Shown: piece after piece, positions 17,416-63,358 of the stretch
Position numbering within the stretch: position 1 is the first letter of the stretch
How the letters are laid out: every line of letters begins with the position of its first letter
Assembly: GCA_041659845.1 (NCBI GenBank)
Contig: JBAZXM010000003.1
Coordinates: 4,641-68,640 of the forward strand
DNA from: Minisyncoccota bacterium
GTDB lineage: Bacteria > Patescibacteriota > Minisyncoccia > Phycocordibacterales > UBA9973
DNA length: 64,000 bases
Direction of reading: 5' to 3'
Made by a program: the position numbers and the translations under genes
The notes under the pieces: model-generated
Told to the model about the DNA's origin: nothing
Seen by the model: the letters and a program-made list of their open reading frames with translations, nothing else
Databases searched by the model: none

Positions 17416-17581
17416 ACAATCAATCAATTCAACTTTTAAAAGCTAAGTAGTGAGGGTGATCTTACAAATGATCACCCCTGGGGCCTGTGGGAGATTTAAA
17501 TACTCCCATCCCTTGAGCTAAACTCAAGGTCCTAGAAAAACACAATAAAATGTGTTGAAAGAACAGGTTATCCCCCTTCGA

Positions 17582-17656
17582 GGACGCGACAGGATTCGAA
17601 CCTATGACCTCAACCCATGGGAAGGTTGCGCTCTGCCAGTGCTGAGCTACGCGTCC
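17582..17656 (-). tRNA. tRNA-like gene in 23S-5S spacer with an 8-nt anticodon loop (UUCCCAUG; Gly(CCC)-like, discriminator U)
   Basis: Minus-strand sequence is GGACGCG-TA-GCTC-AGCACTGGCA-GAGC-G-CAACC-TTCCCATG-GGTTG-AGGTC-ATAGG-TTCGAAT-CCTGT-CGCGTCC. The 7-bp acceptor and 5-bp anticodon stem are perfect and the T-loop is canonical. Confidence 0.6.
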
Positions 17657-27239: not shown

Positions 27240-30227
27240 TTATTTGGAATCAGTTGAATTAAACAATGATGCAGTTAAGAATCGTCCGAGAGAGCGAGCT
27301 GTGTTTTTAACTCTGGACCAGAATGAGACACGTTTCGGAGCAGTATCACCTGCTACGGTAGCAACTTCAACTTTTTCGGCAGTATTTAGAGAAATATTTG
27401 CCTTTGTTATTTTATTTGCAGATTGTGCTGATGAGATTGTTCCTTGTGTTTTAGTTAGAGGCTTCATGATTGAAGTCAATACGCTTTTCAACGGATTAAC
27501 TAATGTCTGATCCAAAACTTTCTCAATCGTGGAAGGTTCAGTTGCAGTTTCATCAGAAACAACTAAGAGTTCTGTGTTTGTTGGTGTTGTCGGTGTTGTC
27601 GGTGTTTCAACGCTCGTATAAGAATGAACTCCGGCAACATTCAATTCCAAAGTAATGACCTGCTGAGGGCTGGAATTTGAAGTACGGTCAGTATAGTTAA
27701 CAAACTTCTCATAGTGATATGGGAGATTATTTACTGCGTGAAGCACTGTGTCAACATGCGAAACCGGAATAGAACAATAATAAACTCCCGTTGTTCCAAA
27801 TTCAGGGCAAGTTATGGTGAAATTGTTGCCTGCGGTAACGGTATCGCCGGAAATATTAGTATTATAAATAGTTCGAATATCCACTACTTTCAATCCGAAT
27901 AATACATTTGAAACGCTGATTGATGCTCGAGGAGAAATAGCTGTACGATTTGTCGTTCCGAATGAAGTATTGGTAACATAAGTATCTTTCACAACAGTGA
28001 TATCCCCTGCTCCGCCATCTTGTGCTACAAGTACTGCACAGTAGTAGATACCTGCGCCACTTTCAATACATGCGGTTGCAGATGATCCGGCAGTGACGAC
28101 TGCTCCTGAAAATGCCGCTCCGTCGCCCTCACGTGTGACTGTAAGTTTCTGCGCGAATTCCAAGCCTTTACAAGAAGTAGATGCTGAAACAGAAGTCGAA
28201 CACACAGGATTTGCGCCAAGTGTGATTACGAGCTGGCCTGTAGCTGAAGTGTTTATAGTGGAAAATCCAGCATTGGTTATACCTGTATTAGCGTATCCGT
28301 CCTTGTACAATGAGAGTGCGTTTGTTCCTGAAGCCGGAGCCCAGTATGCACTGTTGGTAGAACTGTATGACGGAGCAACTCCGCCGAATGTCGCAGTGTC
28401 GAGGTTGGAAATATTGAATACTGTTCCCAATTCATTAGAAACGATTGTTTTGAATTGGAATAAAAGATTTGAAATAGCAGTTGAAGATTGTATGGATGTT
28501 CCGGAAGTTCGATTGGCTGTCGTATCATTTTTGGTAACATAGCCAGTTTTTGCAACAACGATATCATTCGCTCCACCATCCTCTGCCACTGGCACAGCAC
28601 AGTAATAAGTTGAAGCGTTTTCAATACATGCAGTTGCTAGAGATCCAGCAGTGATTGTTGCTCCAGAAATTGAAGCATTGTCGCCTTCGCGGGTTACTGT
28701 AATCTTCTGGCCGAATTCTAGACCTTTACATGAAGTAGAGGTTGAGATAGCAGATCCGCAAACAGGATTTGCGCCAAGTGTAATCACAATCTGACCTCCT
28801 GCTGAAGTAGTGACATTCATTAATCCGGCATTGGTTGTTCCAGCATCAACATAACCGTCTTCATTTAAAATGAGCGCAGCAGTTGCCGGAGCGACTGCCC
28901 AATAAGCAGTGTTGGTTGAATTTATATCAGCAGATGAACCATTAAAAGTCGCCGTATCAAGTCCTGAAAAAGTAAAAGCAGTTCCCAATTCATCAGAAAC
29001 TATTGCTTTTAATTGAAAGAGAATACCTGATACAGCAACACTAGCTTGTGCTCCAGTACCATCCACACGATCAATCGTTGCGCCTGATGTATTAGTAACG
29101 TATCCAATCTTTGTGATTTGAATATCACCTACTCCCCCATCCTCTGCCACTGGCACAGCACAGTAATAAGTTGAAGCGTTTTCAATACATGCAGTTGCTA
29201 GAGAACCGGCAGTGATTGTTGCTCCAGAAATTGAAGCACTGTCGCCTTCGCGGGTTACTGTAATCTTCTGGCCGAATTCTAGACCTTTACATGAGGTTGA
29301 TGCTGAGATCCCAGCTGCACAAGGAGCGCTTGTGTCGAGCGTAAGAGCAACTTGAGCGGTATCAGAAGTCGTAATCGCTGATAGGCCGGCGTTGGTTGTT
29401 GTTGCATCTACATAGCCGTTCTTATCTAAAACAAGCGAAGCTGTCATTGGGGCAGTTGCCCAGTAGGCAGTATTTCCTGAAATGAAATCTGGAGTGGCAG
29501 TGTTGAACGTTGCTGTATTAAAAGTAGCAAAAGGGAAAATATTTCCTAATTCATCAGCTGTAGTCACCTTCAGAGCGAAGAGAACATTCGAAACTGTGAT
29601 TGATGCCTGTGCATCTCCGTCTGTGGTACGGTCAATAGTGCTTGCAGTTGTTGTAATATATCCTGGGAGAGCTATTGAAATATCATTTGGTGTGCCGTCT
29701 TCTATGAAAGGAGTAGCGCAGTAATATACTGAAGCATTTTCAATACATGGTGTTGCGAGAGACCCAGCGGTAATTGTTGCGGCTGAAAGTGAAGCATTAT
29801 CCCCTTCGCGTGTAAGAGTAACTTTCTGTCCGAACTCTACAGCAGAAACATTATAGATGTTCGGATCAGCAACGAGCGCATCATAGGTTCCCACATTAGT
29901 CATGGTCTTTGTCACATATCCTGAAACACTTATTTGAAGATCTACTGTATCAGTATCATCACAACTTTCAGTCGTCATTGGAAGCGGCGCAGTAATCATT
30001 CCTGATCCATCAGTTGTACCGAGGGTTGCAAATGTTCCCCCCGCACACTGTATTTCAACAGTCGCGCCGGAAAGAGGAGCGTTATCCACCTCTCGAGTTA
30101 CGGTAACCTGTACATCACCTGCCGCAGCCAATACTTGACTAACAGGAGGCATTACAGAAAAAATTGCTAAAAATACTGATAAAATACTGATAAAAAATAG
30201 ATTCGCACGCAGTTTTGTTATTAACAT
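27240..30227 (-). CDS. large secreted surface protein with 4-5 tandem ~160-aa Cys-containing repeat modules and C-terminal Thr/Pro-rich region
   Basis: Signal peptide MLITKLRANLFFISILSVFLAIF. Repeats contain CKGLEFGQKITVTREGD..ATACIENASTYYCAVPVAEDGG. About 190-nt near-identical DNA repeats at 28570-28760 and 29145-29310. Confidence 0.7.
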   Translation of the reverse strand: MLITKLRANLFFISILSVFLAIFSVMPPVSQVLAAAGDVQVTVTREVDNAPLSGATVEIQCAGGTFATLGTTDGSGMITAPLPMTTESCDDTDTVDLQISVSGYVTKTMTNVGTYDALVADPNIYNVSAVEFGQKVTLTREGDNASLSAATITAGSLATPCIENASVYYCATPFIEDGTPNDISIALPGYITTTASTIDRTTDGDAQASITVSNVLFALKVTTADELGNIFPFATFNTATFNTATPDFISGNTAYWATAPMTASLVLDKNGYVDATTTNAGLSAITTSDTAQVALTLDTSAPCAAGISASTSCKGLEFGQKITVTREGDSASISGATITAGSLATACIENASTYYCAVPVAEDGGVGDIQITKIGYVTNTSGATIDRVDGTGAQASVAVSGILFQLKAIVSDELGTAFTFSGLDTATFNGSSADINSTNTAYWAVAPATAALILNEDGYVDAGTTNAGLMNVTTSAGGQIVITLGANPVCGSAISTSTSCKGLEFGQKITVTREGDNASISGATITAGSLATACIENASTYYCAVPVAEDGGANDIVVAKTGYVTKNDTTANRTSGTSIQSSTAISNLLFQFKTIVSNELGTVFNISNLDTATFGGVAPSYSSTNSAYWAPASGTNALSLYKDGYANTGITNAGFSTINTSATGQLVITLGANPVCSTSVSASTSCKGLEFAQKLTVTREGDGAAFSGAVVTAGSSATACIESGAGIYYCAVLVAQDGGAGDITVVKDTYVTNTSFGTTNRTAISPRASISVSNVLFGLKVVDIRTIYNTNISGDTVTAGNNFTITCPEFGTTGVYYCSIPVSHVDTVLHAVNNLPYHYEKFVNYTDRTSNSSPQQVITLELNVAGVHSYTSVETPTTPTTPTNTELLVVSDETATEPSTIEKVLDQTLVNPLKSVLTSIMKPLTKTQGTISSAQSANKITKANISLNTAEKVEVATVAGDTAPKRVSFWSRVKNTARSLGRFLTASLFNSTDSK

Positions 30228-30349
30228 CCTGAAAGTATACATAAGGAAAATCTTATGTCAAGAGTCATGTATAAGTGTTTGGAATAAATGATGGCTAATT
30301 TTTTCCCTTATTTTTATAAAGGACACTGTGTGTAAAATCTAAAGGACAT

Positions 30350-31147: not shown

Positions 31148-34100
31148 TTATGACGTCTTTTGGATTGTTCCAAGAGCCGGCTTACCGTCAGCTGGAAGAG
31201 CTGTGATAGTGCCAGTTATGTCACCATCTTGCTCACCATCGTAACCAAGGTTAGCTTCAGTTACAGAGAACTTAAGATCACCAATGTTTGCGATAGACAA
31301 TGAGAAGGTGTCGCCAATTGCAACAGTAGTAACTGTAGAAATAGTTACCGTGATGTATCGGTATGAACCACCATTAATTGTCGTAGTTGCTGTAAGACTA
31401 CCAAAGTCTACAGAGTCAGTACCTGAAACTTCAAGAGAGTTTGCAAGGTAGTCACTTGAGTTTTCGCTTGAAGCGTAAACTGTGTAACGAGCCGCTGTAC
31501 CAGTGTGAGCTCCGCTGTCAGTGAACTTTGCGTTAGTCAAAGTAACTTGAGCAGAACCATTATTGGTAACCTTAAAGCGTCCAAGCACTGTACCAGCACC
31601 AACATTTGATGTGGTAGATGAACCATTCGTTGGATACTCACCTGAAGCGAGTATCTGGAATGGAACAATTGTGTTTACTGAGCCTGAAAGGTTAGCTGAA
31701 CCAGCGTAAGTTGGAGCGCTGTTTGTTACAGAACCCTTTGCAATGATACCACCGTTCGCTGTTGTAGCGACATTTGCTTGGTTAGCGTCTACAGAAATTG
31801 TAAACGGAAGACCAGCAGTGTCGGAAGTAACAGTGTAAACAGTTGTACCATCAGCAGCAGTTACAACTGAAGCTTGTGCGCTTAAGTTGATTGCAGCTGT
31901 CAAACCAGCTGTGATTTCAGCAACTGTTGCAGAAGCATCAGAAGTGTAAGTTATAGCTGTGCCGTTGATAGTTGTAGTGTATACAGTGCTATTAACAGCA
32001 GTTGGGGTAACTGTGTTTACCTGTGCAGTCTGAGCTGCAACACTCATGTAGAAATCATTGCCCAATTTAGCAGTGTTTTCACCGAGAATGTCAGCCTTTA
32101 CATACAATGTAACCGGTGTTCCTGGATTTATGGTCATAGGAAGAAGGTTATCAGTTGCAGTAAAGGTGTAGTAACAGATATTTGAAGTACAAGTTGAGAA
32201 GAGACTTGCAGTCTGGAATGCAGTTGTTGCATCCAAGAGAGCGCCTGTTCCAGCCTGAGCATAAACACGGATATTACTTAGGTTGTTCTGAGTAAGAGCA
32301 GTACCTGTTGCACGAAGCTGAAGACTTGTGATCTTCTGAGCTTCATACTGTGAAGTCAAACGCGCAGAAAGGTAGATACCGTTCATTGTGTTGATCTTTA
32401 CAATCTGAGCAACAGTAGGAGTAGCACCAGTGCCTGAAACTGTTGAGAGTGTCAAAGTTCCGCCAGCAACTAGTGTCATTGCCTGACCACTTCCAGCGAT
32501 TGTAGGTGAAGAGATGCTGTTGCCAGTATCCTTACCAGTAGCAGTAACGCCACCTGAAGCAATCTTGTAAGTGTGTGTACCTGATGTACCTGTAATGATG
32601 TCACCGTAAAGCTTCAAAGTAGTATTTGTGCTTCGTCCAACAATAATTGGGCTTGTGAAGCTAAATGTTACTGTGTTTGCGTTTACAGAAGTTGAAGATG
32701 ATGTATTCATCACTGTACCAGCTGAATCCTTCATTACAAGGTTTGCAATGTTAGAGTATGCAGCTGCGCCACCGATTGTGTCGGTAACTACTATAGATGA
32801 AATGCGAGCATCCTCACCAGAAGACTGAGCGTTAAACTCGAAGTTTGCAAGCTCAAAATTGTTTGTACCAGCAACAACTGATGCAGCAACCGGAGTTGTG
32901 AGAGTTGTTACGGACAATGAAGCAGCTTGAACTGCGCGAGTAAAGCCATCAGAAACAGATACTGTAGGATCAATAGTGTCGTTAGTCAAAAGACGCTTTA
33001 CAGATGTAATGTCAAAATCATTTACAAAGTAAGCATCAGATGAAGTAGCGCTACTAGAGATAGAAGCAGTTACTTCTATGAAGCTATCAGTACCTGCAGG
33101 AAGTACGTAGTAGCTTGATAGTGATCGAGCTGAAGCAGTACCAACTACTGGGAAGTTTGTAGTGTTAGCGGCTGCGCTGTAAACAACTGCGCCGTTAACC
33201 TTAACAAATACTGTACCAGTAAGAGCTACTGATGAAGCATCCTGATCGAGACCGAATGAAACTTGGCGGAGTTCCATGTTTTCGCCAACAGGCTTAACAC
33301 GGTACTTAGCAAGTACTACATCGTTAGCACCAGGAACAACTGCAACTGAAGGTGAATCAGTAGCGCGTACAAATGTAAGCGTACCTGAACCGATAGTTAC
33401 GAGGTTGTAGTTGGTAGCATCACCGATTGGGAATGATGTGTCAGTTGTACCAGCTGCAGGCAATAGGCCAGCACCAGTACTAACGCCACGAAGATCAACA
33501 TCTCCATTTTCTTCTACGACAAACTGAATTGTTCGTGAAGCACCGTCAACGATCTTAGCGCGTATTGTAAAGTCTTTTGTCTGTCCCTTAGTGATAAGGT
33601 ACGGAGTTGCAAGAGTAAACATTATGTCGCCATTTGTTGAAGGCTGAGCTGTCGCAATAATAGAACCTGTCTGATCAAGGAGTTCTACATCCTTGTAGTC
33701 AGTTGCTGAAGCATTTCCATTGTTTCGGACCTTGAAGCCATGAAGTCTTACGTCTTCATTACTTGAAGTTTCGCGAATTCGGAATTTAGTGATTTCCTGT
33801 GCGCTTGTAGCATCAGCATTCATAGTGATACCTGAAGCGTTAACCGGCTGAACATCAAATGTTGTAGTACCGATAGAAGAAGTTCCATCGATAACTGACA
33901 TTAGATTTCCGCTGATTGGGAATGAACCACCAACAGTGCCGCCTGAAACTATAACATCAGAAGCAGACTTGATGTTGAAACCAAGAGTTCCTGCGTTAGA
34001 TGTAGAAGCGACATTAACCTTGACCCATAGAGTCATTGTCTGACCAGCAGCAATGACGATAGGATCAGAAGAGAATGTCATGATTGCAATGCCGTCAGCA

Positions 34101-34840
34101 CCAAGAGTGGTGACAACATTACCATGGCGTACGCCACTTCCATCATAAACAGAAATACCTGCAATGTTAGTGTTGCCGTAGTAACCTGTTTTTGTAAGGT
34201 TTACACCGCTGACATTAACTGTTGAAGATGTACTGTTTGTAATGTTGAAGCCCAGAACTTTGTTGTTCGCACTACCGGTTGCAATGTATCCGGAAGCAGG
34301 ATTTTCAGAGGAAAGTGAAACAGTCACTGAACCTGTGATTGAAGTACCTGAACCAGAACATGGCTGTCCTGTAGTTGAACTGAATCCTGCAGTTGATGAA
34401 CAACCTGCTGGATAAGTCGTAGTCAAAGTAGTAGAACATGCTACTCCTGTGGTAGGACTAAATCCTGTGGTTGAAGTACAACCTGCTGGAAGAGTTGTTG
34501 AACCGCCCATTGAATTCAACACACCTCGTGTGATTGAACCAACGAATCCGGCAACAGGGCTGATGTTGTGCTTAGCCTGGAATTTCAAAACAGCAGAGTG
34601 AGTCTTCGCACCGAAGTATGAAGTCTCCATGCCGATTGAACCAGCACCAGAAGCGGAAACGAGAGTAGCAGCATCTGTGTTAAGAACTTTTTGGAGTTCT
34701 TTAACATCAGGTGATGTCATACCCATCTTCAAGTTTGTGTTGAAGGTGTAAGCGTGTGCGACTGAAGCGCCAGCAAGCACGAGTACTCCTACGAACAAAC
34801 CTAAAGCTGCTTTCGCAAATTTAGAATATGTTTTTAACAT
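31148..34840 (-). CDS. giant (~1230 aa) secreted surface protein with N-terminal peptidoglycan-binding-like domain and Thr/Ser/Ala-rich repeat region
   Basis: Signal peptide MLKTYSKFAKAALGLFVGVLVLAGASVAHA. Peptidoglycan-binding-like block LQKVLNTDAATLV..KFQAKHNISPVAGFVGSITRGVL. Long low-complexity repeated region follows. Confidence 0.7.
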   Translation of the reverse strand: MLKTYSKFAKAALGLFVGVLVLAGASVAHAYTFNTNLKMGMTSPDVKELQKVLNTDAATLVSASGAGSIGMETSYFGAKTHSAVLKFQAKHNISPVAGFVGSITRGVLNSMGGSTTLPAGCTSTTGFSPTTGVACSTTLTTTYPAGCSSTAGFSSTTGQPCSGSGTSITGSVTVSLSSENPASGYIATGSANNKVLGFNITNSTSSTVNVSGVNLTKTGYYGNTNIAGISVYDGSGVRHGNVVTTLGADGIAIMTFSSDPIVIAAGQTMTLWVKVNVASTSNAGTLGFNIKSASDVIVSGGTVGGSFPISGNLMSVIDGTSSIGTTTFDVQPVNASGITMNADATSAQEITKFRIRETSSNEDVRLHGFKVRNNGNASATDYKDVELLDQTGSIIATAQPSTNGDIMFTLATPYLITKGQTKDFTIRAKIVDGASRTIQFVVEENGDVDLRGVSTGAGLLPAAGTTDTSFPIGDATNYNLVTIGSGTLTFVRATDSPSVAVVPGANDVVLAKYRVKPVGENMELRQVSFGLDQDASSVALTGTVFVKVNGAVVYSAAANTTNFPVVGTASARSLSSYYVLPAGTDSFIEVTASISSSATSSDAYFVNDFDITSVKRLLTNDTIDPTVSVSDGFTRAVQAASLSVTTLTTPVAASVVAGTNNFELANFEFNAQSSGEDARISSIVVTDTIGGAAAYSNIANLVMKDSAGTVMNTSSSTSVNANTVTFSFTSPIIVGRSTNTTLKLYGDIITGTSGTHTYKIASGGVTATGKDTGNSISSPTIAGSGQAMTLVAGGTLTLSTVSGTGATPTVAQIVKINTMNGIYLSARLTSQYEAQKITSLQLRATGTALTQNNLSNIRVYAQAGTGALLDATTAFQTASLFSTCTSNICYYTFTATDNLLPMTINPGTPVTLYVKADILGENTAKLGNDFYMSVAAQTAQVNTVTPTAVNSTVYTTTINGTAITYTSDASATVAEITAGLTAAINLSAQASVVTAADGTTVYTVTSDTAGLPFTISVDANQANVATTANGGIIAKGSVTNSAPTYAGSANLSGSVNTIVPFQILASGEYPTNGSSTTSNVGAGTVLGRFKVTNNGSAQVTLTNAKFTDSGAHTGTAARYTVYASSENSSDYLANSLEVSGTDSVDFGSLTATTTINGGSYRYITVTISTVTTVAIGDTFSLSIANIGDLKFSVTEANLGYDGEQDGDITGTITALPADGKPALGTIQKTS

Positions 34841-35031
34841 AGTGATAATTAAGTGATGCACCTCTCTGTACAAGATCGCTCTCATATAAAAAGATGCGGT
34901 GCGCGATTAAATTTAATTTCGACAAATTAATAGTGCGCACCATGATTGAAAAAATTATCCGGAGCAATAATTATAATAAATGCCCGTAATAATTTCCCAA
35001 GCCATTTCCCCGTGAAGAGAAATGGACGAAC

Positions 35032-45058: not shown

Positions 45059-48000
45059 TTAAGGTATTATTGGTTCAGGATTAGAAATTGGTGCTGGGTC
45101 GGGAGTGGGAGCAGGATCAGATTCCTCAATTGGAGGAGTGATTGGGTCTGGCACAGGGTCAGAAATTGGTGCAGGATCAGGAGTTGGTGCAGGGTCCGGG
45201 GCTGGAGATGGATCTTGATAAGATTGATTAGTATTACAATCACCCGCTGTTTGAGAGAGTGATCCGTTTTTTATTTTTATACAATATAAAGTTCCAGTAT
45301 CTTCATCTTTGAGTTCAATCTTATCAAATGTTCCCTTTTGTGCGGTAATTGTATTCGCAATCAATTCCTGCACCCTCACAACCCCATTCACAATCTTCTC
45401 CTCAGTACTAAATAGATAATCCATGATGAGTTTCTTCAGAGTTGAGGAACCTGTTCCATCATCGAGAGTTTCAAGACCCTTGAGACGGAGATCCAGTGCT
45501 TGCACTGAACCCATGAGTAAGCCGTTGACTGAAACTTGATCGATGGAATTGCCTTGCATAAATAGCGGATCGACTTCGTCAGCAATGAATCCGAGGTGAG
45601 CTTTAGAAAGAGGGTTATCAGTACCGTAGCCTTGTACTTCTTTGATGTAACGGAACATTCTTAGTGGTGCAGAAACAACTTTATCAAGAGCTTGCGATGG
45701 ATCTGTGTATGGGGTGATGTCTTGTTTGGTATCTCTGGTTGATGTTTGATCTCCCACAACTACGCCTGCTGTGTCATTGGCATTCGTTGGAGCGGCGGTG
45801 TGTATGCGGAGCTTGCCGGCTGCGTCTTGCCATGTATAACCTGCGGTGCCAGTATTACTTTGAAAGTTGATGGAGCCTGCGCCGGGAGTAGCGTTGGTGT
45901 TGCGGCCGAGGGTGAGGACTGGGCCGGCGGCGCCGGAGCCGAAGTCGTTGTTGGCAAATGTAATATCGCCTGTATTTGTAATTCGCATTCTTTCAATCAA
46001 AGTTCCTCCTGTTGCTGTTGAGAAGTATATTGACCCTGCATTTTCAGCTGTTCCAAAATTTTCTAGCCCTATTCTGGCTGTATTCACAGGAGTAGTTGCT
46101 CCAACCCACCAGTTCAAGCCGTTCAAATCTGCTCCGTTAGATATAGCGTCTGAGTTAGACCAGAATTCCATTACTGGAAGAACAGAGTTGGCATTAGTTA
46201 TAGTAATACCCCTAAATCCTGCACCTGCTTTGATTGGAGTAGTGGTCCCGATACCCAAATTCCCCGTACTCCCCTGCACAAACAGAGAAGAAGTTCCGGA
46301 GGAATTCGTGAAGTTCGCAGTAGATCTGTGAATAGTATAAGTTTCTCCGGTTACTCCGGCTGTGAATGCAGGAGTGATTGTGAATGACGTACCTGTTGCT
46401 GTTGTGACTATTGCACGAGCTTGGCCAGTGGTGGTGGTAGGGATAATGTAATCGCCTGCGTTTAGGGTGACACTAGATGATGTGGTGAATGTGGTAGCTG
46501 TGTCTACTGCGGTCATTGTGACAGCTCCGCTGGATGTAGTACCTCCGAGTGTTTGGAGTTGAGCGGTAGGAGTGGTGGTGCCGATGCCGACGTTGCCGGC
46601 AGAATCTATTCGCATTCTTTCTGTACCTGTATTCGTTCCTGTTGGGGTGGTATAAAACATCAAACGACCAGGCATACTACCAACCCCCGGCACTCCATCA
46701 ACTGATGAACGAATCAATGCTGATTGTTGAAAAGTTACACCATCAGAACCTTGAAATTCTAATTCACCAATATTGTCAGCATTATTGACTATCGTTTGTC
46801 CGCCCTTAGTTGCCGAACGAGAAAATTGAAGTTTTAAACGAGAACTTCCGTTAGTATTACTAAAAAAACCTAAACGTAAAGCTCTAGTAGCACTAGTGTT
46901 TGATTGAATATCAAGAATTTCTGTCGGTGCTGTTGTACCGATGCCCATATTCCCTGCACTATCTATTCTCATTCTCTCAGTCAAAACACTTGGCGAAGCA
47001 TCAGTAGCTGTCGAAAAAGAGACATTTGTTGGAACTCTGTCAGTTCCTATCGTACCTTCCGCGGCGAAGTCAATCGAGCCCATTTGCTTAAAATTAGTTC
47101 CGTCATATCCTTCTGCAACAAAAGATGTCAACCTATCCCCAGTAACTATTGTTGTCGGAATTGCTTCTGTGCCTCTGGCTTTTCTTCCAAGAAAAATAGA
47201 GCCAAGTGTATTAGTAGAATATTGAGCAGACATTATACCTCGAACCGCCACTGCTGTAGTTTCTGAAACATGAATTTTTGATAATGGTGCTGTCGTGCCA
47301 ATACCAACATTCCCCATGATATTCATTCCCCCTTGGTAGATGTTGTTTAGAGAAATTGCAATGTAGTCGGTTTTGCCGGAGGTCATGACGCGATTGCCTG
47401 TTCCTGTGTTGGAGACGGCGACGAACATGCCGTTGCCATAAGTAATGCCTTCCCAAATATTGTCAGCAACGCTAGTGCGCGTTACCCATGTAATACCATC
47501 AGGTGAAGTCATGACGCGGTTGCCTGTGCCAGAAGCACCTATTGCAACAAACAGACCGTTACCATATGTAATACCAAACCAACTGTTGTCCGCTGCACTT
47601 GTTCTACTTGTCCATGTGATGCCGTCCGGTGAGGTCATGACGCGGTCGGAGGTGCCGGTGTTTGAAACCGCCACAAAGAGACCGTTACCATAGGTTACTG
47701 CAATCCAGTTGTTATCTACTGCACTTGTTCTACTTGTCCATGTAATACCATCAGGTGAAGTCATGACGCGGTTGCCGGAGCCGGTAGTAGATACCGCAAC
47801 AAACAATCCATTGCCGTAGGTGACACCAAGCCAGCTATTATCCGCTGCGCTTGTGCGGGATGTCCACGTAATGCCGTCAGGTGAGGTCATGACGCGGTTG
47901 CCGGAGCCGGTAGAAGCCACTGCAACAAAAAGTCCGTTACTGTAAGTGACATCACGCCAGGTATTATCTGCTGCACTTGTGCGGGATGTCCAGGTGATGC

Positions 48001-48448
48001 CGTCAGGTGAGGTCATGACGCGGTTGCTAGTGCCATCAGCAGAGATCGCAACAAAAAGTCCGTTGCCGTAAGTAATGCCAACCCATTGATTATCTACAGC
48101 ACTTGTACGAATAGTCCAGTTGATGCCATCAGGTGAAGTCATGACGCGGTTTCCGGAGCCAGTACCTGCTACCGCTACAAAAAGTCCATTTCCATAAGCC
48201 ACATTATTCCACTCATTATCCGCTGCGCTGGTGCGTGAAGTCCAGCTCGTACCCTTGGAAAGAGTATTACTGACATCTACAGTGCAGTCTACTGATCCCG
48301 GGGTACAATTGGGATCTAGTGTTTGACCAGGAGAGAATGATGCTAGGAGTTGTAATCCTGAGGAGAAGATCGCAAATGAAGCAAGCGAAACGATAAGAAT
48401 GGAGTTTCGTTTGAAAAAGAGTTTGGTATGTTTAAAAATAGTTGACAT
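45059..48448 (-). CDS. large secreted protein with eight BNR/Asp-box beta-propeller repeats, Thr/Gly-rich middle, C-terminal intramolecular-chaperone (peptidase S74, phage tail-fibre type) domain and Pro-rich tail
   Basis: Eight copies of MTSPDGITWTSRTSAADNxWxGVTYGNGLFVAV (SxDxGxTW Asp-box). The C-terminal block TRDTKQDITPY..LRMFRYIKEVQGYGTD..AHLGFIADEV..LDLRLKGLE resembles endosialidase-chaperone domains. Tail is PAPDPAPTPDP. Confidence 0.7.
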   Translation of the reverse strand: MSTIFKHTKLFFKRNSILIVSLASFAIFSSGLQLLASFSPGQTLDPNCTPGSVDCTVDVSNTLSKGTSWTSRTSAADNEWNNVAYGNGLFVAVAGTGSGNRVMTSPDGINWTIRTSAVDNQWVGITYGNGLFVAISADGTSNRVMTSPDGITWTSRTSAADNTWRDVTYSNGLFVAVASTGSGNRVMTSPDGITWTSRTSAADNSWLGVTYGNGLFVAVSTTGSGNRVMTSPDGITWTSRTSAVDNNWIAVTYGNGLFVAVSNTGTSDRVMTSPDGITWTSRTSAADNSWFGITYGNGLFVAIGASGTGNRVMTSPDGITWVTRTSVADNIWEGITYGNGMFVAVSNTGTGNRVMTSGKTDYIAISLNNIYQGGMNIMGNVGIGTTAPLSKIHVSETTAVAVRGIMSAQYSTNTLGSIFLGRKARGTEAIPTTIVTGDRLTSFVAEGYDGTNFKQMGSIDFAAEGTIGTDRVPTNVSFSTATDASPSVLTERMRIDSAGNMGIGTTAPTEILDIQSNTSATRALRLGFFSNTNGSSRLKLQFSRSATKGGQTIVNNADNIGELEFQGSDGVTFQQSALIRSSVDGVPGVGSMPGRLMFYTTPTGTNTGTERMRIDSAGNVGIGTTTPTAQLQTLGGTTSSGAVTMTAVDTATTFTTSSSVTLNAGDYIIPTTTTGQARAIVTTATGTSFTITPAFTAGVTGETYTIHRSTANFTNSSGTSSLFVQGSTGNLGIGTTTPIKAGAGFRGITITNANSVLPVMEFWSNSDAISNGADLNGLNWWVGATTPVNTARIGLENFGTAENAGSIYFSTATGGTLIERMRITNTGDITFANNDFGSGAAGPVLTLGRNTNATPGAGSINFQSNTGTAGYTWQDAAGKLRIHTAAPTNANDTAGVVVGDQTSTRDTKQDITPYTDPSQALDKVVSAPLRMFRYIKEVQGYGTDNPLSKAHLGFIADEVDPLFMQGNSIDQVSVNGLLMGSVQALDLRLKGLETLDDGTGSSTLKKLIMDYLFSTEEKIVNGVVRVQELIANTITAQKGTFDKIELKDEDTGTLYCIKIKNGSLSQTAGDCNTNQSYQDPSPAPDPAPTPDPAPISDPVPDPITPPIEESDPAPTPDPAPISNPEPIIP

Positions 48449-48508
48449 ATAGATATGGTAGACGGATTTCACATCCACTATACACCGTAATATTATATAA
48501 TTTTTTAT

Positions 48509-58730: not shown

Positions 58731-59321
58731 CTATTTCGCAATTTCTAAAATACTTTCAAGCGCGGATGGAAGTTCACGACACCCACTTTTCCCATTCAAG
58801 TGACCACCATTAGGAATAGGAATAAGTTTACACTCAAGAACACCGGAAAGAAATTCTGCATGCTCAAAAGGAACCCTATCGTCATTGTCACCATGTATTA
58901 CCACAAATTTTTCACATGATGATTTTATTTTTTCAAAATCAAAAGGATGGTCTACAAAATGATCAATTTTTCTGATATCACCTTCTGTATCCTCAACACG
59001 CAGTGGTTTATATAAACCAGAAACGAGAACAGCGCCGGCAATTTTTTTACCTTCGGGAACTTGCTCAAGAAAACGCAAAACAGCCGGAACTCCAAGACTG
59101 TGCCCAACTAAACATACGTCTTCATACTTTTCTCCGACTGCTTTTTGTATAGTCTCCAACCATTCTTCAAAAATAGGATCATCGGGACTCGGCATACTAA
59201 GTGCTTCAGCCTCTATCCCCTTATTCTGTAATTCTTGAACAAGCCACGGCCTCCAACCACCAGTGGGCGAAGCATGAAAACCATGAATTATAATTACTCG
59301 TTTCATATTATTTTTATACAA
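58731..59321 (-). CDS. alpha/beta serine hydrolase, RBBP9/YdeN family (paralog 2)
   Basis: IIHGFHASP..W and GHSLG nucleophile elbow; 196 aa. Confidence 0.7.
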   Translation of the reverse strand: MYKNNMKRVIIIHGFHASPTGGWRPWLVQELQNKGIEAEALSMPSPDDPIFEEWLETIQKAVGEKYEDVCLVGHSLGVPAVLRFLEQVPEGKKIAGAVLVSGLYKPLRVEDTEGDIRKIDHFVDHPFDFEKIKSSCEKFVVIHGDNDDRVPFEHAEFLSGVLECKLIPIPNGGHLNGKSGCRELPSALESILEIAK

Positions 59322-59877
59322 CTTCCGCTAGAAGTTCCGGGAATGCATCGGTACCCATATCATCATAACAAAAGTGACCCATGTTTTTGAATTCAACAAC
59401 TTTAATATTCTTTATTTTATTTTTTAGGATTTCTAACGTATCCTGCATTTCTTTCTCATCATTTGTTGAACTAAAAACCATAACACCATTTGTTTTAGCA
59501 ACCAGATTTTCATCAATTTCAAAATCAAACATCCCAGTTTTTAAAAATGTATCCGGATCAATCCACGGAGCAACGAGTACAACCTTTCCAACTTTTACAT
59601 TGTTTTCACTGAGATATCTCACGATAAAACCGGCACCGCAAGAATGACCGATTAAAATAGTTTCTTGATTTAAGAGAAATTGTTCGAATATTTCTTTCCA
59701 AGAATTATAGTCTGGATTATATGGCACGGGCATTTCAGGGGTTTGAGCGACAATGTCTTTCAGTAAAAGTTGTTTTTGGATCCAAGGAAACCAGTGACGG
59801 TTGGAAGATGCTGGACGATTTATGTCGTAATATTCTTCTTTATTTGGCATTCCATGAATTATAATTGCGGTTTTCAT
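59314..59877 (-). CDS. alpha/beta serine hydrolase, RBBP9/YdeN family (paralog 1)
   Basis: IIHGMPN..W and GHSCG; 187 aa. Tandem with the previous gene and overlaps it by 8 nt. Confidence 0.7.
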   Translation of the reverse strand: MKTAIIIHGMPNKEEYYDINRPASSNRHWFPWIQKQLLLKDIVAQTPEMPVPYNPDYNSWKEIFEQFLLNQETILIGHSCGAGFIVRYLSENNVKVGKVVLVAPWIDPDTFLKTGMFDFEIDENLVAKTNGVMVFSSTNDEKEMQDTLEILKNKIKNIKVVEFKNMGHFCYDDMGTDAFPELLAEVV

Positions 59878-59878
59878 A

Positions 59879-62800
59879 TTACTTTTCTATTGTAACCTTA
59901 AACACCATATCTTCGATCTTGATTTCGGTGCCGTCATTTTCAGTAAATGAAACATCTTTTACCAGCACAGTCTTTTTGAGATCCGATTCGAATTTTTCTA
60001 TTAGAGATTTGCCAATACTATCTGTTTGGATTGAAAGAGAAATCACATCACTAGGGGTGAGCCCTTGTTGCTTACGCAAATCTTGCAATCCTCGGACAAG
60101 CTCGCGATAATTCCCTTCGGCTTTCAATTCTGGAGTGATTGTAGTATCAAACTCAAAATCCTCTGCGACTGCCGAATTTTGTACCACATTTTTAATATTA
60201 AGTTCGTCTTTAATTATTTCACTGTATTCTATTCCTAATTCGTAATTTTTAATTCGTAATTCATTCAGTGGTTGTCGTACTGGAATACCAAGCTTCTTGC
60301 GGAGTGCATTGCCTCCAGTACAGATAGTGCGCACTGTTTCTATGTTTTTAATAAGTTCTTCATCAGTAGTCCGAGATTCCGGCCAATTTTCAAGATGCAC
60401 CGATTCTTTATCTCCTTCATTCTTCAATTTCTGCCATATGTCTTCCGAAGCGAACGGCGCAAACGGTGCCATAAATTTCGCAAGGTTGATGAGAACAATA
60501 TAAAGTGTTTGTTTTGATTCCGCGTCCACTTCTTTTATACGATCACGCGAGCGGCGGACGTACCAAGTTGAGAGGTCGTCGATAAATGAGCGGATTAGAC
60601 GAACTGGTTCCAAGATTTTGAATCCATCCAAATGGTCAGTTATTTTTTTATTCAAGACATTCAGCTCCGCGAGAATCCACTGATCGAGTACATTCTTCGG
60701 CATGAAGTCGGTGGGCTGCGTCTCTAAATTCTTGTCTCGATACAATTCATAAAAAGCGAGAACATTATAGAGCAGGTTGAAAACTTTATTATGAAGTTCT
60801 GCGACAGTCTTTTCGTCGAAATTTTTAGAATCTCCCGGCTGATTAACTGCATACATCCACAATCGGAGCGTATCAACGCCGTATTTATCAATCATCGTCC
60901 ACGGGTCAACAATGTTTCCCTGTGACTTCGACATCTTCTTACCCTTTTCATCGAGAATATGCCCTAAGCAAATAACATTCTTGTATGCCTTACCGCGACC
61001 CATGAGAATTCCGACAGCATGAAGCGTGTAGAACCATCCGCGAGTCTGATCGATTGCCTCGGAAATATAATCTGCCGGGTAGCCTTTGGTATCTACCCAT
61101 TCTTTGTTCTCAAACGGATAGTGATCCTGAGCAAAAGGCATCGCGCCGGAATCAAACCAAACATCCATAACTTCTTTCACACGCTTCATCGGCTCTCCGT
61201 CATCAGACACGAGCTCAATCTCATCGATATATGGTCGATGCAAATCAAGTTCATACTTTTCATTGTGCGGAATTGGAACAAAAGGCAATAGTCTAATCTC
61301 TGCATTATTCGGCGGATTGTTTAAATCATTTCTTGTTGCCATATCAGCAAAAGTAACCCCTTCTGCAATAAAATTCAGAGCTCGCTCTGTCCCGGAGTGA
61401 CTGATAATTAATATATTTTTTCCATCATACTTCGCATCAATATCATAGATAAAATCTCCAGCCCTATTCACGACATCAGCGAAGCTTTCTCCGTCAGAAA
61501 ATCTTTTCTCGGGTTCAAATACATAATCATGGTCATAGTATTGCTTCATGGCAGAACGATCTTTTCCGATAAATTCAGAACTGATCTGCCATTCATGAAT
61601 GCGATCATCATAAACAACCTGATCTAAAGGAAAGTTTAATTGCTGGCATAGTATGGCAGTAGTTTCTTTCGTACGCACGTATGGAGAAGATATTATGATA
61701 TCAACTTTTTGATTAAACTCTTTTGTTTTTTCTAAAACTTGTTTTTGCCCGTTTTCAGTCAAAGGGCATGGGGCGGAATCAACAACACATTCCTCAGTAA
61801 CATTATTTACCGCTTCTCCATGACGCATAACAAAGTAGGTATTCCCGGATTTTTTGGTTTTTTTCTTAAGGTCTTCCAGCGAGCCTATGACCTCTGTTTT
61901 TCCGCTCTCCGTTGTCCATATCGGCAACGGAGTACCCCAATAACGCTCGCGGGAAATCGCCCAGTCTTTGATATCCTTCAGCCATTCGCCGAAGCGCCCA
62001 TCGCGAATATGAGCAGGTTCCCAATTAATCGATTGATTTTCTTTAACCATCTCGTCGCTAAGAGATGACATGCGGATATACCACGAATCACGTGCGAAGT
62101 AGATAAGCGGAGTCTTACAGCGCCAACAATGCGGATAGGAGTGCTCGTATTTTTCTTTTTTGAAGAGTAGTCCACGATGAGCCAAATCTTTGATTATTTC
62201 CACAGCCGTAGCTTCATCCTTCACAAATTTCCCCGCCAGGAATCCTGTCTCAGGCTTGAATGTTCCGTCATCATTCACGAGGTGATACTTCGGCAAACCG
62301 ACTTTCGTCCCAAGCTCAAAGTCCTCCTGCCCGTACATTACAGCGGTGTGTACGATACCAGTACCGTCGGTCGTAGTCACGAAATCCGCCGGATAGACTT
62401 TAAAAGCATTTGGAAGTTTTTCCCTTTCCGCACCGCTGACATCATCTTGAAGAAATGGGTAGAGTGGTTCGTATTCGAGACCGACAAGATTCGTACCTTT
62501 TATTTTTTCTATAATTTCATATGCTTCAGTGATAACTGACAATCGAGATCCAGCAAGATAAATAAAGCCATCGCCGATTTTAATTTTTACATAATCAATT
62601 TTCTCCCCCACGGCTAGCCCAACATTACCGGGCAATGTCCATGGTGTCGTCGTCCAAGCTAGAATATATTCATTCTCCTTCCCTGAAATTTTGAATTTCA
62701 CATACACAGACAAATCTTTCACATCTTCATATCCTTGCGCGAGTTCATGCGAAGAAAGCGCTGTTCCGCAACGCGGGCACCATGGCACAACCTTGTAGTC

Positions 62801-63358
62801 TTTATAGAGAAAATTCTTATCCGAAACATTTTTTAAAACATTCCAAACGGATTCTATATATTTGGATTCATAAGTGACATACGGATTTTCCTGATCTACC
62901 CAATATCCGATACGATGAGTAAATTTATTCCAAATGTCCAAAAATTCCCAAACGCTTTCTTTACATTCTTTGTTAAATTGCGCTATTCCGTAGTTTTCAA
63001 TTTCTTTCTTTGACGACAACCCGAGCTTTTTCTCCACCTGTAACTCCACCGGTAAACCGTGTGTATCCCAGCCGCCCTTTCTGCGTACATGAAATCCGCG
63101 CATTGTCTTGTAGCGAGGGATAATATCTTTGAATGCACGAGCCTCCAAGTGGTGAATACCCGGCTTGCCGTTCGCCGTCGGCGGACCTTCGTAAAAAACG
63201 AATTCACCCTTGGGCGCTTCTTTTTCCAAAGATTTTTTGAATATCTGCTGCTCATTCCAGAATTCCAGAATTTTTTCTTCACGCTCTGCAGCAGCTGATT
63301 TTTCTTGCTTTTTTTCCGAAGGTTCCATAGAAATCACTTTAGCATATTCCTGCTTCAA
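59879..63358 (-). CDS. ileS: isoleucyl-tRNA synthetase (type 2) with an inserted ~200-aa histidine-phosphatase (PGAM-family) domain
   Basis: P(T)ANG..HHL (HIGH), editing-domain WTTTPWTLPGN, WAISRERYWGTPLP, then the insertion FVMRHGEAVNN..SSPYVRTKETT..DDRIHEW..ILIISHSGTERAL, then LHRPYIDE..DVWFDSG..KMSKS. Confidence 0.9.
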   Translation of the reverse strand: MKQEYAKVISMEPSEKKQEKSAAAEREEKILEFWNEQQIFKKSLEKEAPKGEFVFYEGPPTANGKPGIHHLEARAFKDIIPRYKTMRGFHVRRKGGWDTHGLPVELQVEKKLGLSSKKEIENYGIAQFNKECKESVWEFLDIWNKFTHRIGYWVDQENPYVTYESKYIESVWNVLKNVSDKNFLYKDYKVVPWCPRCGTALSSHELAQGYEDVKDLSVYVKFKISGKENEYILAWTTTPWTLPGNVGLAVGEKIDYVKIKIGDGFIYLAGSRLSVITEAYEIIEKIKGTNLVGLEYEPLYPFLQDDVSGAEREKLPNAFKVYPADFVTTTDGTGIVHTAVMYGQEDFELGTKVGLPKYHLVNDDGTFKPETGFLAGKFVKDEATAVEIIKDLAHRGLLFKKEKYEHSYPHCWRCKTPLIYFARDSWYIRMSSLSDEMVKENQSINWEPAHIRDGRFGEWLKDIKDWAISRERYWGTPLPIWTTESGKTEVIGSLEDLKKKTKKSGNTYFVMRHGEAVNNVTEECVVDSAPCPLTENGQKQVLEKTKEFNQKVDIIISSPYVRTKETTAILCQQLNFPLDQVVYDDRIHEWQISSEFIGKDRSAMKQYYDHDYVFEPEKRFSDGESFADVVNRAGDFIYDIDAKYDGKNILIISHSGTERALNFIAEGVTFADMATRNDLNNPPNNAEIRLLPFVPIPHNEKYELDLHRPYIDEIELVSDDGEPMKRVKEVMDVWFDSGAMPFAQDHYPFENKEWVDTKGYPADYISEAIDQTRGWFYTLHAVGILMGRGKAYKNVICLGHILDEKGKKMSKSQGNIVDPWTMIDKYGVDTLRLWMYAVNQPGDSKNFDEKTVAELHNKVFNLLYNVLAFYELYRDKNLETQPTDFMPKNVLDQWILAELNVLNKKITDHLDGFKILEPVRLIRSFIDDLSTWYVRRSRDRIKEVDAESKQTLYIVLINLAKFMAPFAPFASEDIWQKLKNEGDKESVHLENWPESRTTDEELIKNIETVRTICTGGNALRKKLGIPVRQPLNELRIKNYELGIEYSEIIKDELNIKNVVQNSAVAEDFEFDTTITPELKAEGNYRELVRGLQDLRKQQGLTPSDVISLSIQTDSIGKSLIEKFESDLKKTVLVKDVSFTENDGTEIKIEDMVFKVTIEK
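61247..61852 (-). other. histidine-phosphatase/phosphoglycerate-mutase-family domain embedded in IleS (approx. residues 503-704)
   Basis: PROSITE-like [LIVM]-x-R-H-G-[EQ]-x-x-x-N matches VMRHGEAVNN. SPYVRTKETT, an E-containing RIHEW loop and SHSG supply the remaining catalytic positions. Confidence 0.7.

Follow-up and report, generated by a model that had tools for sequence, protein, structure and literature searches.

A histidine phosphatase domain nested within isoleucyl-tRNA synthetase

A single unbroken open reading frame on the minus strand of the window (the whole 64-kb stretch of DNA analyzed here) spans positions 59879-63358 and encodes, from a TTG codon, an isoleucyl-tRNA synthetase (IleRS) of 1159 aa. 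The start is probably the ATG of residue 11 (63326-63328), which would give 1149 aa, as in P0121, a database copy of the window IleRS that is 100% identical and 1149 aa long. The gene is laid out as follows:

59879..63358, minus strand: ileS, type-2 isoleucyl-tRNA synthetase with a nested phosphatase domain (ORF, TIGR00392, Pfam)
61853..63358, minus strand: synthetase before the insert, residues 1-502 (tRNA-synt_1 at 29-504; aligns to 1ILE 398-482)
63149..63160, minus strand: GIHH, residues 67-70, non-canonical HIGH signature (translation)
62636-62653, minus strand: TTTPWT, CP1 editing motif (invariant in relatives)
61916-61939, minus strand: WGTPLPIW, in the first arm of the CP3 hairpin (translation)
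61247..61852, minus strand: histidine-phosphatase (branch 1) insert plus linkers, residues 503-704 (PF00300, AF2, Foldseek)
61340-61834, minus strand: Pfam core of the insert, residues 509-673 (PF00300)
59879..61246, minus strand: synthetase after the insert (Anticodon_1 at 892-1032, DUF5915 at 1070-1159; aligns to 1ILE 488-537)

The synthetase itself is of a familiar kind. It scores 898 bits against the isoleucyl-tRNA synthetase profile TIGR00392 (cutoff 621.4) and 66 bits against DUF5915 (cutoff 27), and among PDB entries it matches the type-2 enzymes 1ILE and 8C8U best. The class I signatures and the CP1 editing motif are all intact (HIGH in the IleRS2-type form GIHH, KMSKS, and TTTPWT), with PGIHH present in 109 of 121 relatives and KKMSKS in 120 of 121. 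Based upon these conserved motifs and a housekeeping synteny, the window IleRS would be expected to aminoacylate tRNA-Ile. The G/AXHH variant of IleRS2 has been tied to mupirocin hyper-resistance (PMC10485003). Two more specialized identities were considered and rejected: the MupA/MupB mupirocin-resistance IleRS (780-788 bits against a cutoff of 1900) and ileS_w_GNAT (NF040702; 331 bits against a cutoff of 1999, and no GNAT Pfam match).

What sets this protein apart is the interruption of its catalytic domain. A preliminary description of the locus had placed an insertion at about residues 503-704, between the motifs WGTPLPIW and LHRPYIDE, and translation agrees exactly: coordinates 61247-61852 encode residues 503-704, and the phosphatase domain sits between these two motifs. 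Residues 1-502 contain the first Rossmann half, the CP core, the CP1 editing domain, CP2, the CP2-CP3 linker and the first arm of the CP3 hairpin. The Pfam domain tRNA-synt_1 spans residues 29-504 (profile positions 1-270) and is then interrupted by His_Phos_1 (PF00300) at 509-673 (E = 8.1e-24 and 84.8 bits against a cutoff of 21.7 in the whole protein; E = 2.9e-25 and 89.5 bits when the insert is searched alone), which is the nesting that had been anticipated. The continuous reading frame likewise bears out the view that this is a genuine in-frame fusion and not two genes.

The two flanks of the insert align to residues 398-482 and 488-537 of T. thermophilus 1ILE and to residues 396-476 and 485-536 of P. 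megaterium 8C8U. From these alignments, about 200 residues stand here where the tip of the CP3 zinc-knuckle hairpin has 5-8 residues elsewhere, consistent with the earlier statement that type-2 enzymes usually carry a short connective peptide at this point. The spacing between the flanking motifs is 224 residues in the window protein versus 44 in P0113, a related IleRS2 without the domain. The topology of the CP3 subdomain differs among IleRSs. Immediately before it comes the CP2-CP3 linker, which lines the CCA-end pocket and is part of the tRNA CCA/reveromycin pocket (PMC7191050, PMC7955072). The G+C content of the insert (0.36-0.39) is slightly below that of the adjoining parts of the gene; the same values occur elsewhere in ileS, and we found no discontinuity in base composition along the gene beyond its own range.

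The insert models as a phosphatase of the PGAM-type fold

When predicted alone with AF2 (pLDDT 88.4, pTM 0.86), the insert models as an autonomous alpha/beta/alpha PGAM-type domain. In Foldseek searches, this model matches PspA (4IJ5/4IJ6) with E = 1e-12, a TM-score of 0.73-0.75 and an rmsd of 2.7 A, and it also matches PhoE (1H2E), GpgP (4PZ9) and a histidine family phosphatase of the riboflavin pathway. The AF2 model of the whole protein (60 relatives) has a pTM of 0.50, with pLDDT below 50 at residues 48-102 and 730-819 and a poor Rossmann core.

The profile score, the catalytic core and the PGAM-type fold all place the insert among the branch-1 histidine phosphatases (PF00300). Within this family, the insert belongs to the phosphatase subgroup (PhoE/PspA/CobC-like) and not to the mutases. 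Its scores against dPGM_arch (50-55 bits against a cutoff of 225) and GpmB (25-30 against 261) exclude a dPGM proper, pgm_1 (TIGR01258) is absent among the families listed for the insert, and true dPGM structures superpose on the model worse than phosphatases do, with an rmsd of 5-8 A. Thus, of the original assignment to a PGAM/histidine-phosphatase family, the superfamily and the independent PGAM-type fold hold, and the mutase part does not. Nor does the insert reach the equivalog cutoff for CobC (53-58 bits against 162.9), PspA (48-52 against 350) or SixA (28-32 against 74.5). As it falls far under every one of these cutoffs, substrate specificity cannot be transferred to it from CobC, PspA or SixA.

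Catalytic residues of the insert are conserved

The motifs that were first picked out by eye are all present and map to the catalytic positions of the fold:

61817..61825, minus strand: RHG, comprising R512, H513 (predicted phospho-accepting nucleophile) and G514 (conservation)
61673..61675, minus strand: R562, second phosphate-binding Arg, in SSPYVRTKET (invariant)
61592..61594, minus strand: E589, predicted general acid, in DDRIHEW (invariant in close and diverse sets)
61397..61399, minus strand: H654, second catalytic His, in ILIISHSG (invariant)

R512, H513, R562, E589 and H654 are unchanged in 60 close and 17 diverse relatives; G514 is invariant in the close set and at least 90% conserved in the diverse one. 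Among the 78 site-A-type copies of the domain, E589 is replaced by Asp in two, and the R-H-R-E-H pattern is kept in 71 of the 75 copies labelled A?. All complete copies checked at insertion sites A2, B and C, and in valyl-tRNA synthetase (ValRS), retain it as well. Relative to the window protein, identity averages 0.45 in the insert versus 0.72 and 0.64 in the core parts. This pattern suggests that the catalytic residues are under selection while the remainder of the domain drifts faster than the synthetase, and it supports the earlier impression that the domain is not degenerate.

The fusion is ancient and widespread

Far from being a one-off event, the nested-phosphatase IleRS is the standard housekeeping IleRS of a large Paceibacteria/Parcubacteria radiation. 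PF00300 is present in all 120 of the closest relatives of full length, which are 61-69% identical and lie on contigs of up to 598 kb; P0113, a related IleRS2, lacks it. At least 85 GTDB species representatives (Paceibacteria/Parcubacteria) have this architecture, and dozens of 50%-identity representatives carry the domain near residue 480-530. The gene order argS-ileS-recO-DUF11-glyS is conserved in 52-63 of 81 loci, and gene-neighborhood analysis of these 81 loci found no conserved phosphate-related gene beside ileS. Core and insert distances are correlated (Mantel r = 0.68), with none of 999 permutations as high. The insertion is therefore ancient, vertically inherited with the synthetase, and fixed across this radiation.

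Among the best 150 relatives of the insert itself, 91 of the 139 new proteins also hold core sequence resembling IleRS or ValRS, and no further kind of host protein turned up. Two apparent free-standing homologs proved to be otherwise: P0028 is a piece of a frameshifted ileS (at locus L081) and P0031 ends in the IleRS HRP motif. Short matches are therefore unreliable as a guide to function. P0191 and P0196 contain an HD domain as a C-terminal extension; its own Met-like N-terminus makes fusion with a downstream gene more probable than insertion.

Sequences of this kind have been public, and annotated by Pfam, for years. Yet we found no description of the phosphatase insert in the searchable literature, including papers on IleRS structure and evolution, and a survey of 96,219 IleRS sequences makes no mention of it, in line with the preliminary description, which knew of no precedent. 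The occurrence in ValRS, the further IleRS loops and the multiple copies are new here.

The domain recurs at other sites and in ValRS

Contrary to the first impression, the domain is not confined to IleRS. About 35 ValRS clusters hold it at the homologous hairpin, inside WGHRIPVWYCxxC...CxxCG...DTWFSSG. In other IleRS lineages it is found in at least three further loops, with insertion sites overall at about 505/696, 725-727, 746-760 and 875-890. Single IleRS proteins may carry two copies, and the ValRS fragment P0287 carries four. Every insertion seen was internal and inside the catalytic domain, and none was a simple fusion at a terminus. Pairwise identity among the site A, A2, B, C, ValRS and free-standing copies is about 28-35%, and only the ValRS group is coherent by this measure (41%). 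The methionyl-tRNA synthetase in the 64-kb window has no insert, and neither do most Parcubacteria ValRS, so any role in aminoacylation is not a general one.

Possible functions of the nested phosphatase

We hypothesize, with moderate confidence, that the window protein is a housekeeping IleRS2 that is bifunctional, with a phosphatase in its CP3 hairpin that is probably tied to the synthetase reaction. The roles suggested for the domain in the preliminary description are speculative. Judging from its motifs, the protein would be both synthetase and phosphatase. The synthetase part would charge and proofread tRNA-Ile as normal, while the inserted domain would hydrolyze a phosphomonoester via a phospho-His513 intermediate, with the phosphate held by R512, R562 and H654 and with E589 serving as the acid. 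[quoted passage not shown] On balance, the sequence evidence favors a functional tie between the phosphatase activity and the class Ia synthetase reaction, because the sites are repeated, there are sometimes 2-4 copies, catalysis appears intact and only internal insertions were seen. Our best guess for the substrate would be a phosphorylated nucleotide or the phosphorylated acceptor end of a tRNA, beside the synthetic site. Two considerations temper this proposal. The two ends of the chain in a histidine-phosphatase fold emerge on the face away from the active site, and thus the phosphatase pocket may face away from the synthetase. In addition, CP3 is plastic and peripheral, so repeated insertion there could mean tolerance and not function.

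Alternatively, the domain could be a housekeeping phosphatase that hitch-hikes on the synthetase, an explanation that we regard as possible, if on the unlikely side. Here a COG0406-type enzyme (a phosphoserine, sugar-phosphate or nucleotide phosphatase), acting on a metabolite unrelated to aminoacylation, would have become fixed in a surface hairpin that tolerates insertion, within a gene that genome-reduced bacteria need and express constitutively, the synthetase being merely its scaffold. The nearest structures and profiles are indeed metabolic (PspA, PhoE, GpgP, the riboflavin-pathway phosphatase and CobC), CP3 is variable, no conserved neighboring gene points to tRNA biology, and the domain changes more quickly than the core does, as could be the case for a passenger only loosely coupled to it. 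However, chance hosting is hard to credit for a domain that has entered a second class Ia synthetase and at least three other IleRS loops, in up to four copies, always internally and never as a terminal fusion among the insertions seen, and whose best 150 relatives point to no host other than IleRS and ValRS.

If instead the phosphatase acted on the synthetase itself, it could be a cis-acting protective enzyme that dephosphorylates, for example, a KMSKS-loop Ser after attack by HipA/HipT-type kinase toxins, so that IleRS and ValRS stay active. The insertion points flank the KMSKS segment, with those at about 505-760 ahead of it and those at 875-890 beyond it; some branch-1 histidine phosphatases do act on proteins (SixA, PGAM5, Sts-1), and GltX and TrpS are phosphorylated on their KMSKS-type loop by HipA/HipT kinases. 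Yet we know of no kinase toxin directed against IleRS or ValRS, the SixA profile score lies far under its cutoff, and the closest structures are those of phosphatases that act on small molecules and have a cap subdomain; we consider this account improbable. Still harder to sustain is a non-catalytic module, that is, a structural or tRNA/phosphate-binding appendage without turnover, like the leucine-specific domain of LeuRS. It is true that class Ia synthetases have idiosyncratic insertions close to the catalytic site through which tRNA handling is modulated, but binding alone would need neither an acid nor a nucleophile, and the five catalytic residues are invariant though other insert positions are only about 30-45% identical, with every complete copy checked at the other sites and in ValRS equally intact. 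We give practically no weight to an assembly chimera or mis-joined genes. We found nothing in its favor: the insert is slightly lower in G+C than its immediate flanks, but its values recur elsewhere in ileS, the frame is continuous, an identical protein (P0121) is in the public record, the same junctions are found in more than 120 independent assemblies (61-69% identity) and at least 85 species genomes, and insert and core co-diverge. With the same architecture in more than 120 independent assemblies, the fusion is not a chimera.

A more speculative extension of the tie to the synthetase reaction, to which we assign a low probability, is that the nested phosphatase is a cis-acting repair or defense module of class Ia synthetases. 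A CP3 phosphatase beside the CCA-end pocket could strip a blocking phosphate or pyrophosphate from the tRNA 3' end, where toxSAS-type toxins might add such a block or RNase damage might leave one behind; alternatively, its target might be phosphate on the synthetase's own KMSKS loop. IleRS and ValRS would then be "self-healing" in episymbiotic bacteria that could not afford separate repair systems, and an arms race might have left its mark in the repeated, multi-copy, always-active insertions.

Few enzymes are as conserved as the aminoacyl-tRNA synthetases, whose catalytic domains are thought to accommodate idiosyncratic insertions only when these are small. In the present case, an essential synthetase houses within its catalytic domain a second complete, predicted enzyme, which has long been kept throughout a major branch of the Candidate Phyla Radiation. 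Should the phosphatase work on the synthetase, on nucleotides bound to it or on the ends of tRNA, it would represent a new layer of translation quality control or defense; if it is an unrelated metabolic enzyme, it would be a striking constructive fusion in reduced genomes. Because such proteins may score as "phosphoglycerate mutase/gpmB" (COG0406, K15634), metabolic reconstructions should treat them with caution.

Comparison with known systems

The closest likenesses of the insert are PspA (4IJ5), PhoE/YhfR (1H2E and 1EBB), GpgP (Rv2419c, 4PZ9) and CobC, which share its fold (TM-score 0.72-0.75, rmsd 2.7-2.9 A), its length of about 190-200 aa, and its RHG nucleophile, two Arg, Glu acid and second His. 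These proteins are free-standing, whereas the domain in the window is nested in another enzyme. A CobC-like domain is also fused to a nucleic-acid enzyme in the bifunctional RNase H/acid phosphatase of the Rv2228c type (NF005567), a profile that matches the insert weakly (about 50 bits against a cutoff of 326), but there the fusion is end to end and the partner enzyme is a different one. On the synthetase side, no described IleRS2 with G/AXHH (PMC10485003) has a catalytic domain in CP3, unlike the window IleRS. NF040702 (ileS_w_GNAT, N-acetyltransferase domain-containing) provides a curated precedent for an IleRS joined to an unrelated enzymatic domain, although the added domain is GNAT and not a histidine phosphatase. 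Finally, the CP3 zinc knuckle of T. thermophilus IleRS and the leucine-specific domain of LeuRS are, like the insert, peripheral modules in the second half of the Rossmann fold. These modules are small and non-enzymatic, whereas the insert is a full enzyme fold of about 200 aa with a predicted active site.

A histidine-phosphatase domain nested within IleRS

The isoleucyl-tRNA synthetase (IleRS) gene ileS is a single unbroken ORF of 1159 codons starting with TTG (59879-63358, minus strand), and residues 503-704 of its product are the exact translation of coordinates 61247-61852. The start codon is ambiguous (63326-63358, minus strand): TTG gives the longest ORF (1159 aa), as opposed to 1149 aa from an ATG. 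P0121, a database protein identical to the window IleRS, is 1149 aa long, a length consistent with initiation at the residue-11 ATG (63326-63328); we nevertheless number residues by the 1159-residue version throughout.

The preliminary description had proposed that this stretch encodes a histidine-phosphatase domain inside IleS in a continuous reading frame, and profile searches confirm the proposal far above chance. Pfam places tRNA-synt_1 at residues 29-504, ending at profile position 270 of 414, then His_Phos_1 (PF00300) at residues 509-673 (E = 8.1e-24, 84.8 bits against a cutoff of 21.7), followed by the remaining class I core, Anticodon_1 and DUF5915. The insert by itself scores 89.5 bits for His_Phos_1, and the whole protein is recognized as IleS at equivalog level by NCBIfam (898 bits against a cutoff of 621).

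The catalytic elements, also described as intact, withstand comparison with relatives. Relative to the window protein, identity averages 0.45 in the insert, compared with 0.72 and 0.64 in the N- and C-terminal parts of the synthetase. The few invariant insert positions among 60 relatives include R512, H513, G514, R562, E589 and H654; all but G514 are the residues that define catalysis in the histidine-phosphatase superfamily, and these five are also unchanged in 17 diverse inserts (32-55% identity). When modelled alone, the insert adopts a phosphatase fold (pLDDT 88.4, pTM 0.86) that overlays the phosphoserine phosphatase PspA (4IJ5/4IJ6; TM 0.73-0.75, rmsd 2.7 A), as well as GpgP Rv2419c, PhoE and a riboflavin-pathway histidine phosphatase, whereas true phosphoglycerate mutases overlay more poorly (rmsd 5-8 A). 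None of the NCBIfam equivalog models CobC, PspA, dPGM, SixA and GpmB reached its cutoff. The full-length IleRS model was poor in the synthetase core. Because the catalytic residues are invariant and the model superposes on phosphatases, we regard the predicted fold and catalytic machinery of the insert as established.

The synthetase part retains KMSKS, and TTTPWT, the editing motif in CP1, does not vary among relatives. Its HIGH signature is variant:

63149-63160, minus strand: GIHH, a non-canonical G/AXHH form with first and third positions swapped

PGIHH occurs in 109 of 121 relatives; the single-His forms PVLHT (seven) and PPLHS (one) look more aberrant still. The G/AXHH signature is known only from IleRS2 and is tied to mupirocin hyper-resistance, raising Ki experimentally up to thousand-fold with function retained (PMC10485003).

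The insertion point is the CP3 hairpin

The flanks of the insert align with residues 398-482 and 488-537 of T. thermophilus IleRS (1ILE) and with residues 396-476 and 485-536 of P. megaterium IleRS2 (8C8U); thus, about 200 residues replace 5-8 in those enzymes. Similarly, P0113, a related IleRS2 without the phosphatase domain, has 44 residues from WGTPLPIW to LHKPYVDE, compared with 224 in the window protein. The insertion region is the CP3 subdomain, which is peripheral, differs in topology among IleRSs and, in Thermus, forms a zinc knuckle; the linker between CP2 and CP3 directly preceding it (DW.ISR.RYWG) contributes to the tRNA CCA-end/reveromycin pocket (PMC7191050, PMC7955072). In 96 of 121 relatives, three knuckle cysteines flank the insert (WxC... 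/ LVCxCGG); they are missing from the window protein and 23 others, the window sequence reading TTESGK / VSDDGE at residues ~482-487 and 718-724 (61898-61915 and 61187-61207, minus strand). All of these cysteines are replaced in the window protein, whose hairpin presumably no longer binds zinc.

The architecture is genuine and fits vertical inheritance

Each of the 120 best-matching full-length relatives in the database (61-69% identity, 1131-1335 aa) has PF00300 precomputed within IleS; their contigs reach 598 kb, and their labels read Paceibacterota, Nomurabacteria, Minisyncoccia or Patescibacteria. When GTDB species representatives were scanned, the same junction turned up in at least 85 genomes, with labels including Nomura-, Zambryski-, Taylor-, Wolfe-, Yanofsky-, Colwell- and Falkowbacteria. 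Across 81 loci, ileS has argS upstream in 55, and recO (63), a DUF11-family protein (62) and glyS (52) downstream; this conserved block indicates that the insert-bearing gene is the regular housekeeping ileS. Among insert carriers, where cores in many pairs are only 30-50% identical, core and insert distances correlate (Mantel r = 0.68, reached by 0 of 999 permutations), which fits a single old insertion that would have been passed on vertically. Insert G+C (0.36-0.39) is inside the range of the remaining ileS. The shared junctions, synteny and co-divergence exclude an assembly chimera, in keeping with the original view of a genuine fusion. At one related locus (L081, a 12.5 kb JGI contig), ileS is split into many short ORFs, one of which (243 aa) is called 'broad specificity phosphatase PhoE'; thus, frameshifted assemblies can give the nested domain the appearance of a free-standing gene.

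Other features of the window

59314-59877 and 58731-59321, minus strand: two tandem Ser_hydrolase genes (PF06821, YdeN/RBBP9-type alpha/beta hydrolase), abutting or overlapping the ileS stop
17580-17656, minus strand: tRNA gene (ARAGORN; Rfam tRNA, 53 bits)
31148-34885, minus strand: very large ORF, 1245 aa, no Pfam match at E <= 1e-5
27240-30242, minus strand: very large ORF, 1000 aa, no Pfam match at E <= 1e-5
45059-48478, minus strand: very large ORF, 1139 aa, no Pfam match at E <= 1e-5

Because they abut or overlap the ileS stop, the Ser_hydrolase genes look co-transcribed with ileS; the family adjoins ileS in only 6 of 81 loci and is thus a local feature. ARAGORN assigns the tRNA gene, located just downstream of a 23S rRNA gene 3' end (17751 onward), the four-base anticodon 'ccca', which corresponds to an anticodon loop of 8 nt (TTCCCATG).

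The domain recurs at other IleRS sites and in ValRS

When 1.84 billion representatives were scanned in full by HMMER with the insert as query, 3507 matched at E <= 1e-3, 257 of them at E <= 1e-10. The best 150 of these 3507 include 139 new proteins, of which 91 also carry an IleRS- or ValRS-like core; the remainder are short and phosphatase-only, some being fragments, and no host other than IleRS or ValRS was seen among these closest relatives. Copies mapped to window numbering reveal at least four insertion points in IleRS.

Insertion points of the phosphatase domain in IleRS (window numbering)
~505/696: site of the window protein
~725-727: second point
~746-760: between DVWFDSG and the DQTRGWF segment
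~875-890: past KMSKS, ahead of the anticodon-binding domain

Some IleRS proteins contain two copies. P0296, P0311, P0322, P0370, P0290, P0317 and P0358 have either two copies or a single one in a loop different from that of the window protein; these insertions lie both before and after the KMSKS segment, and all copies are catalytically intact. The double-insert form of P0296 is present on contigs as long as 1.06 Mb.

Two relatives are best matched as valyl-tRNA synthetase (ValRS): P0287 (valS 380 bits versus ileS 199) and P0330 (323 versus 150). The P0287 fragment holds four phosphatase copies, of which three are full-length and one is cut short where the contig ends; the first copy has an insertion point of its own, upstream of the CxxC...CxxC hairpin. 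A follow-up search found about 35 Patescibacteria ValRS clusters with the domain (metagenome ValRS include P0388-P0436), and in every cluster spanning the junction it lies within the homologous hairpin, WGHRIPVWYCxxC...[domain]...CxxCG...DTLDTWFSSG. The majority of Parcubacteria ValRS (~720-750 aa) are without it.

R-H-R-E-H (R512, H513, R562, E589 and H654 of the window protein) is kept by every complete copy checked in ValRS (30 of 30) and at A2, B and C, IleRS sites distinguished from site A of the window insert. Copies labelled A? keep it in 71 of 75 cases, with D for E in two and a truncated start in two. The ValRS copies cluster together, with a mean identity of 41%, and the copy groups are ~28-35% identical to one another.

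Two IleRS relatives, P0191 (1327 aa) and P0196 (1335 aa), carry, besides the nested phosphatase, a second phosphohydrolase: an HD domain appended at the C-terminus from residue ~1132 onward, which takes the place of the DUF5915 end. The extension, which has a Met-like N-terminus of its own, probably represents a downstream gene that became fused.

Possible functions of the insert

Judged by sequence, the ileS polypeptide is predicted to be bifunctional, with both active sites under purifying selection. The insert would hydrolyse a phosphomonoester via phospho-His513. Taken together with the architecture, we lean slightly towards a function tied to the class Ia reaction, for example on a phosphorylated nucleotide or the tRNA acceptor end, because all insertions seen lie inside the catalytic domain and none is a simple terminal fusion, because multiple active-looking copies recur in two paralogous synthetases and several loops, and because the best 150 of 3507 matches reveal no other host. 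The main rival is an unrelated housekeeping phosphatase lodged in a tolerant hairpin, a reading that agrees with CP3 being plastic, with the nearest structures being metabolic enzymes and with the absence of informative neighbour genes in the 81 loci; set against the recurrence within synthetases, we consider it rather unlikely. A protein phosphatase acting on the KMSKS loop and a non-catalytic module are less likely readings.

Relation to known synthetases

Insert-bearing sequences have long been public, annotated solely as 'class I tRNA ligase family protein' or 'isoleucine--tRNA ligase'. The searched full-text literature, including IleRS structure papers and recent IleRS evolution papers (one of the latter annotating 96,219 IleRS sequences), makes no mention of a phosphatase insert in IleRS, and the initial impression that no such insertion in a synthetase had been described holds within it. 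The ValRS occurrence and the further IleRS insertion points are new beyond the original finding. Domain accretion by synthetases is, however, a known theme, and an IleRS with a GNAT domain, curated by NCBIfam, provides a precedent for a second domain on this enzyme.
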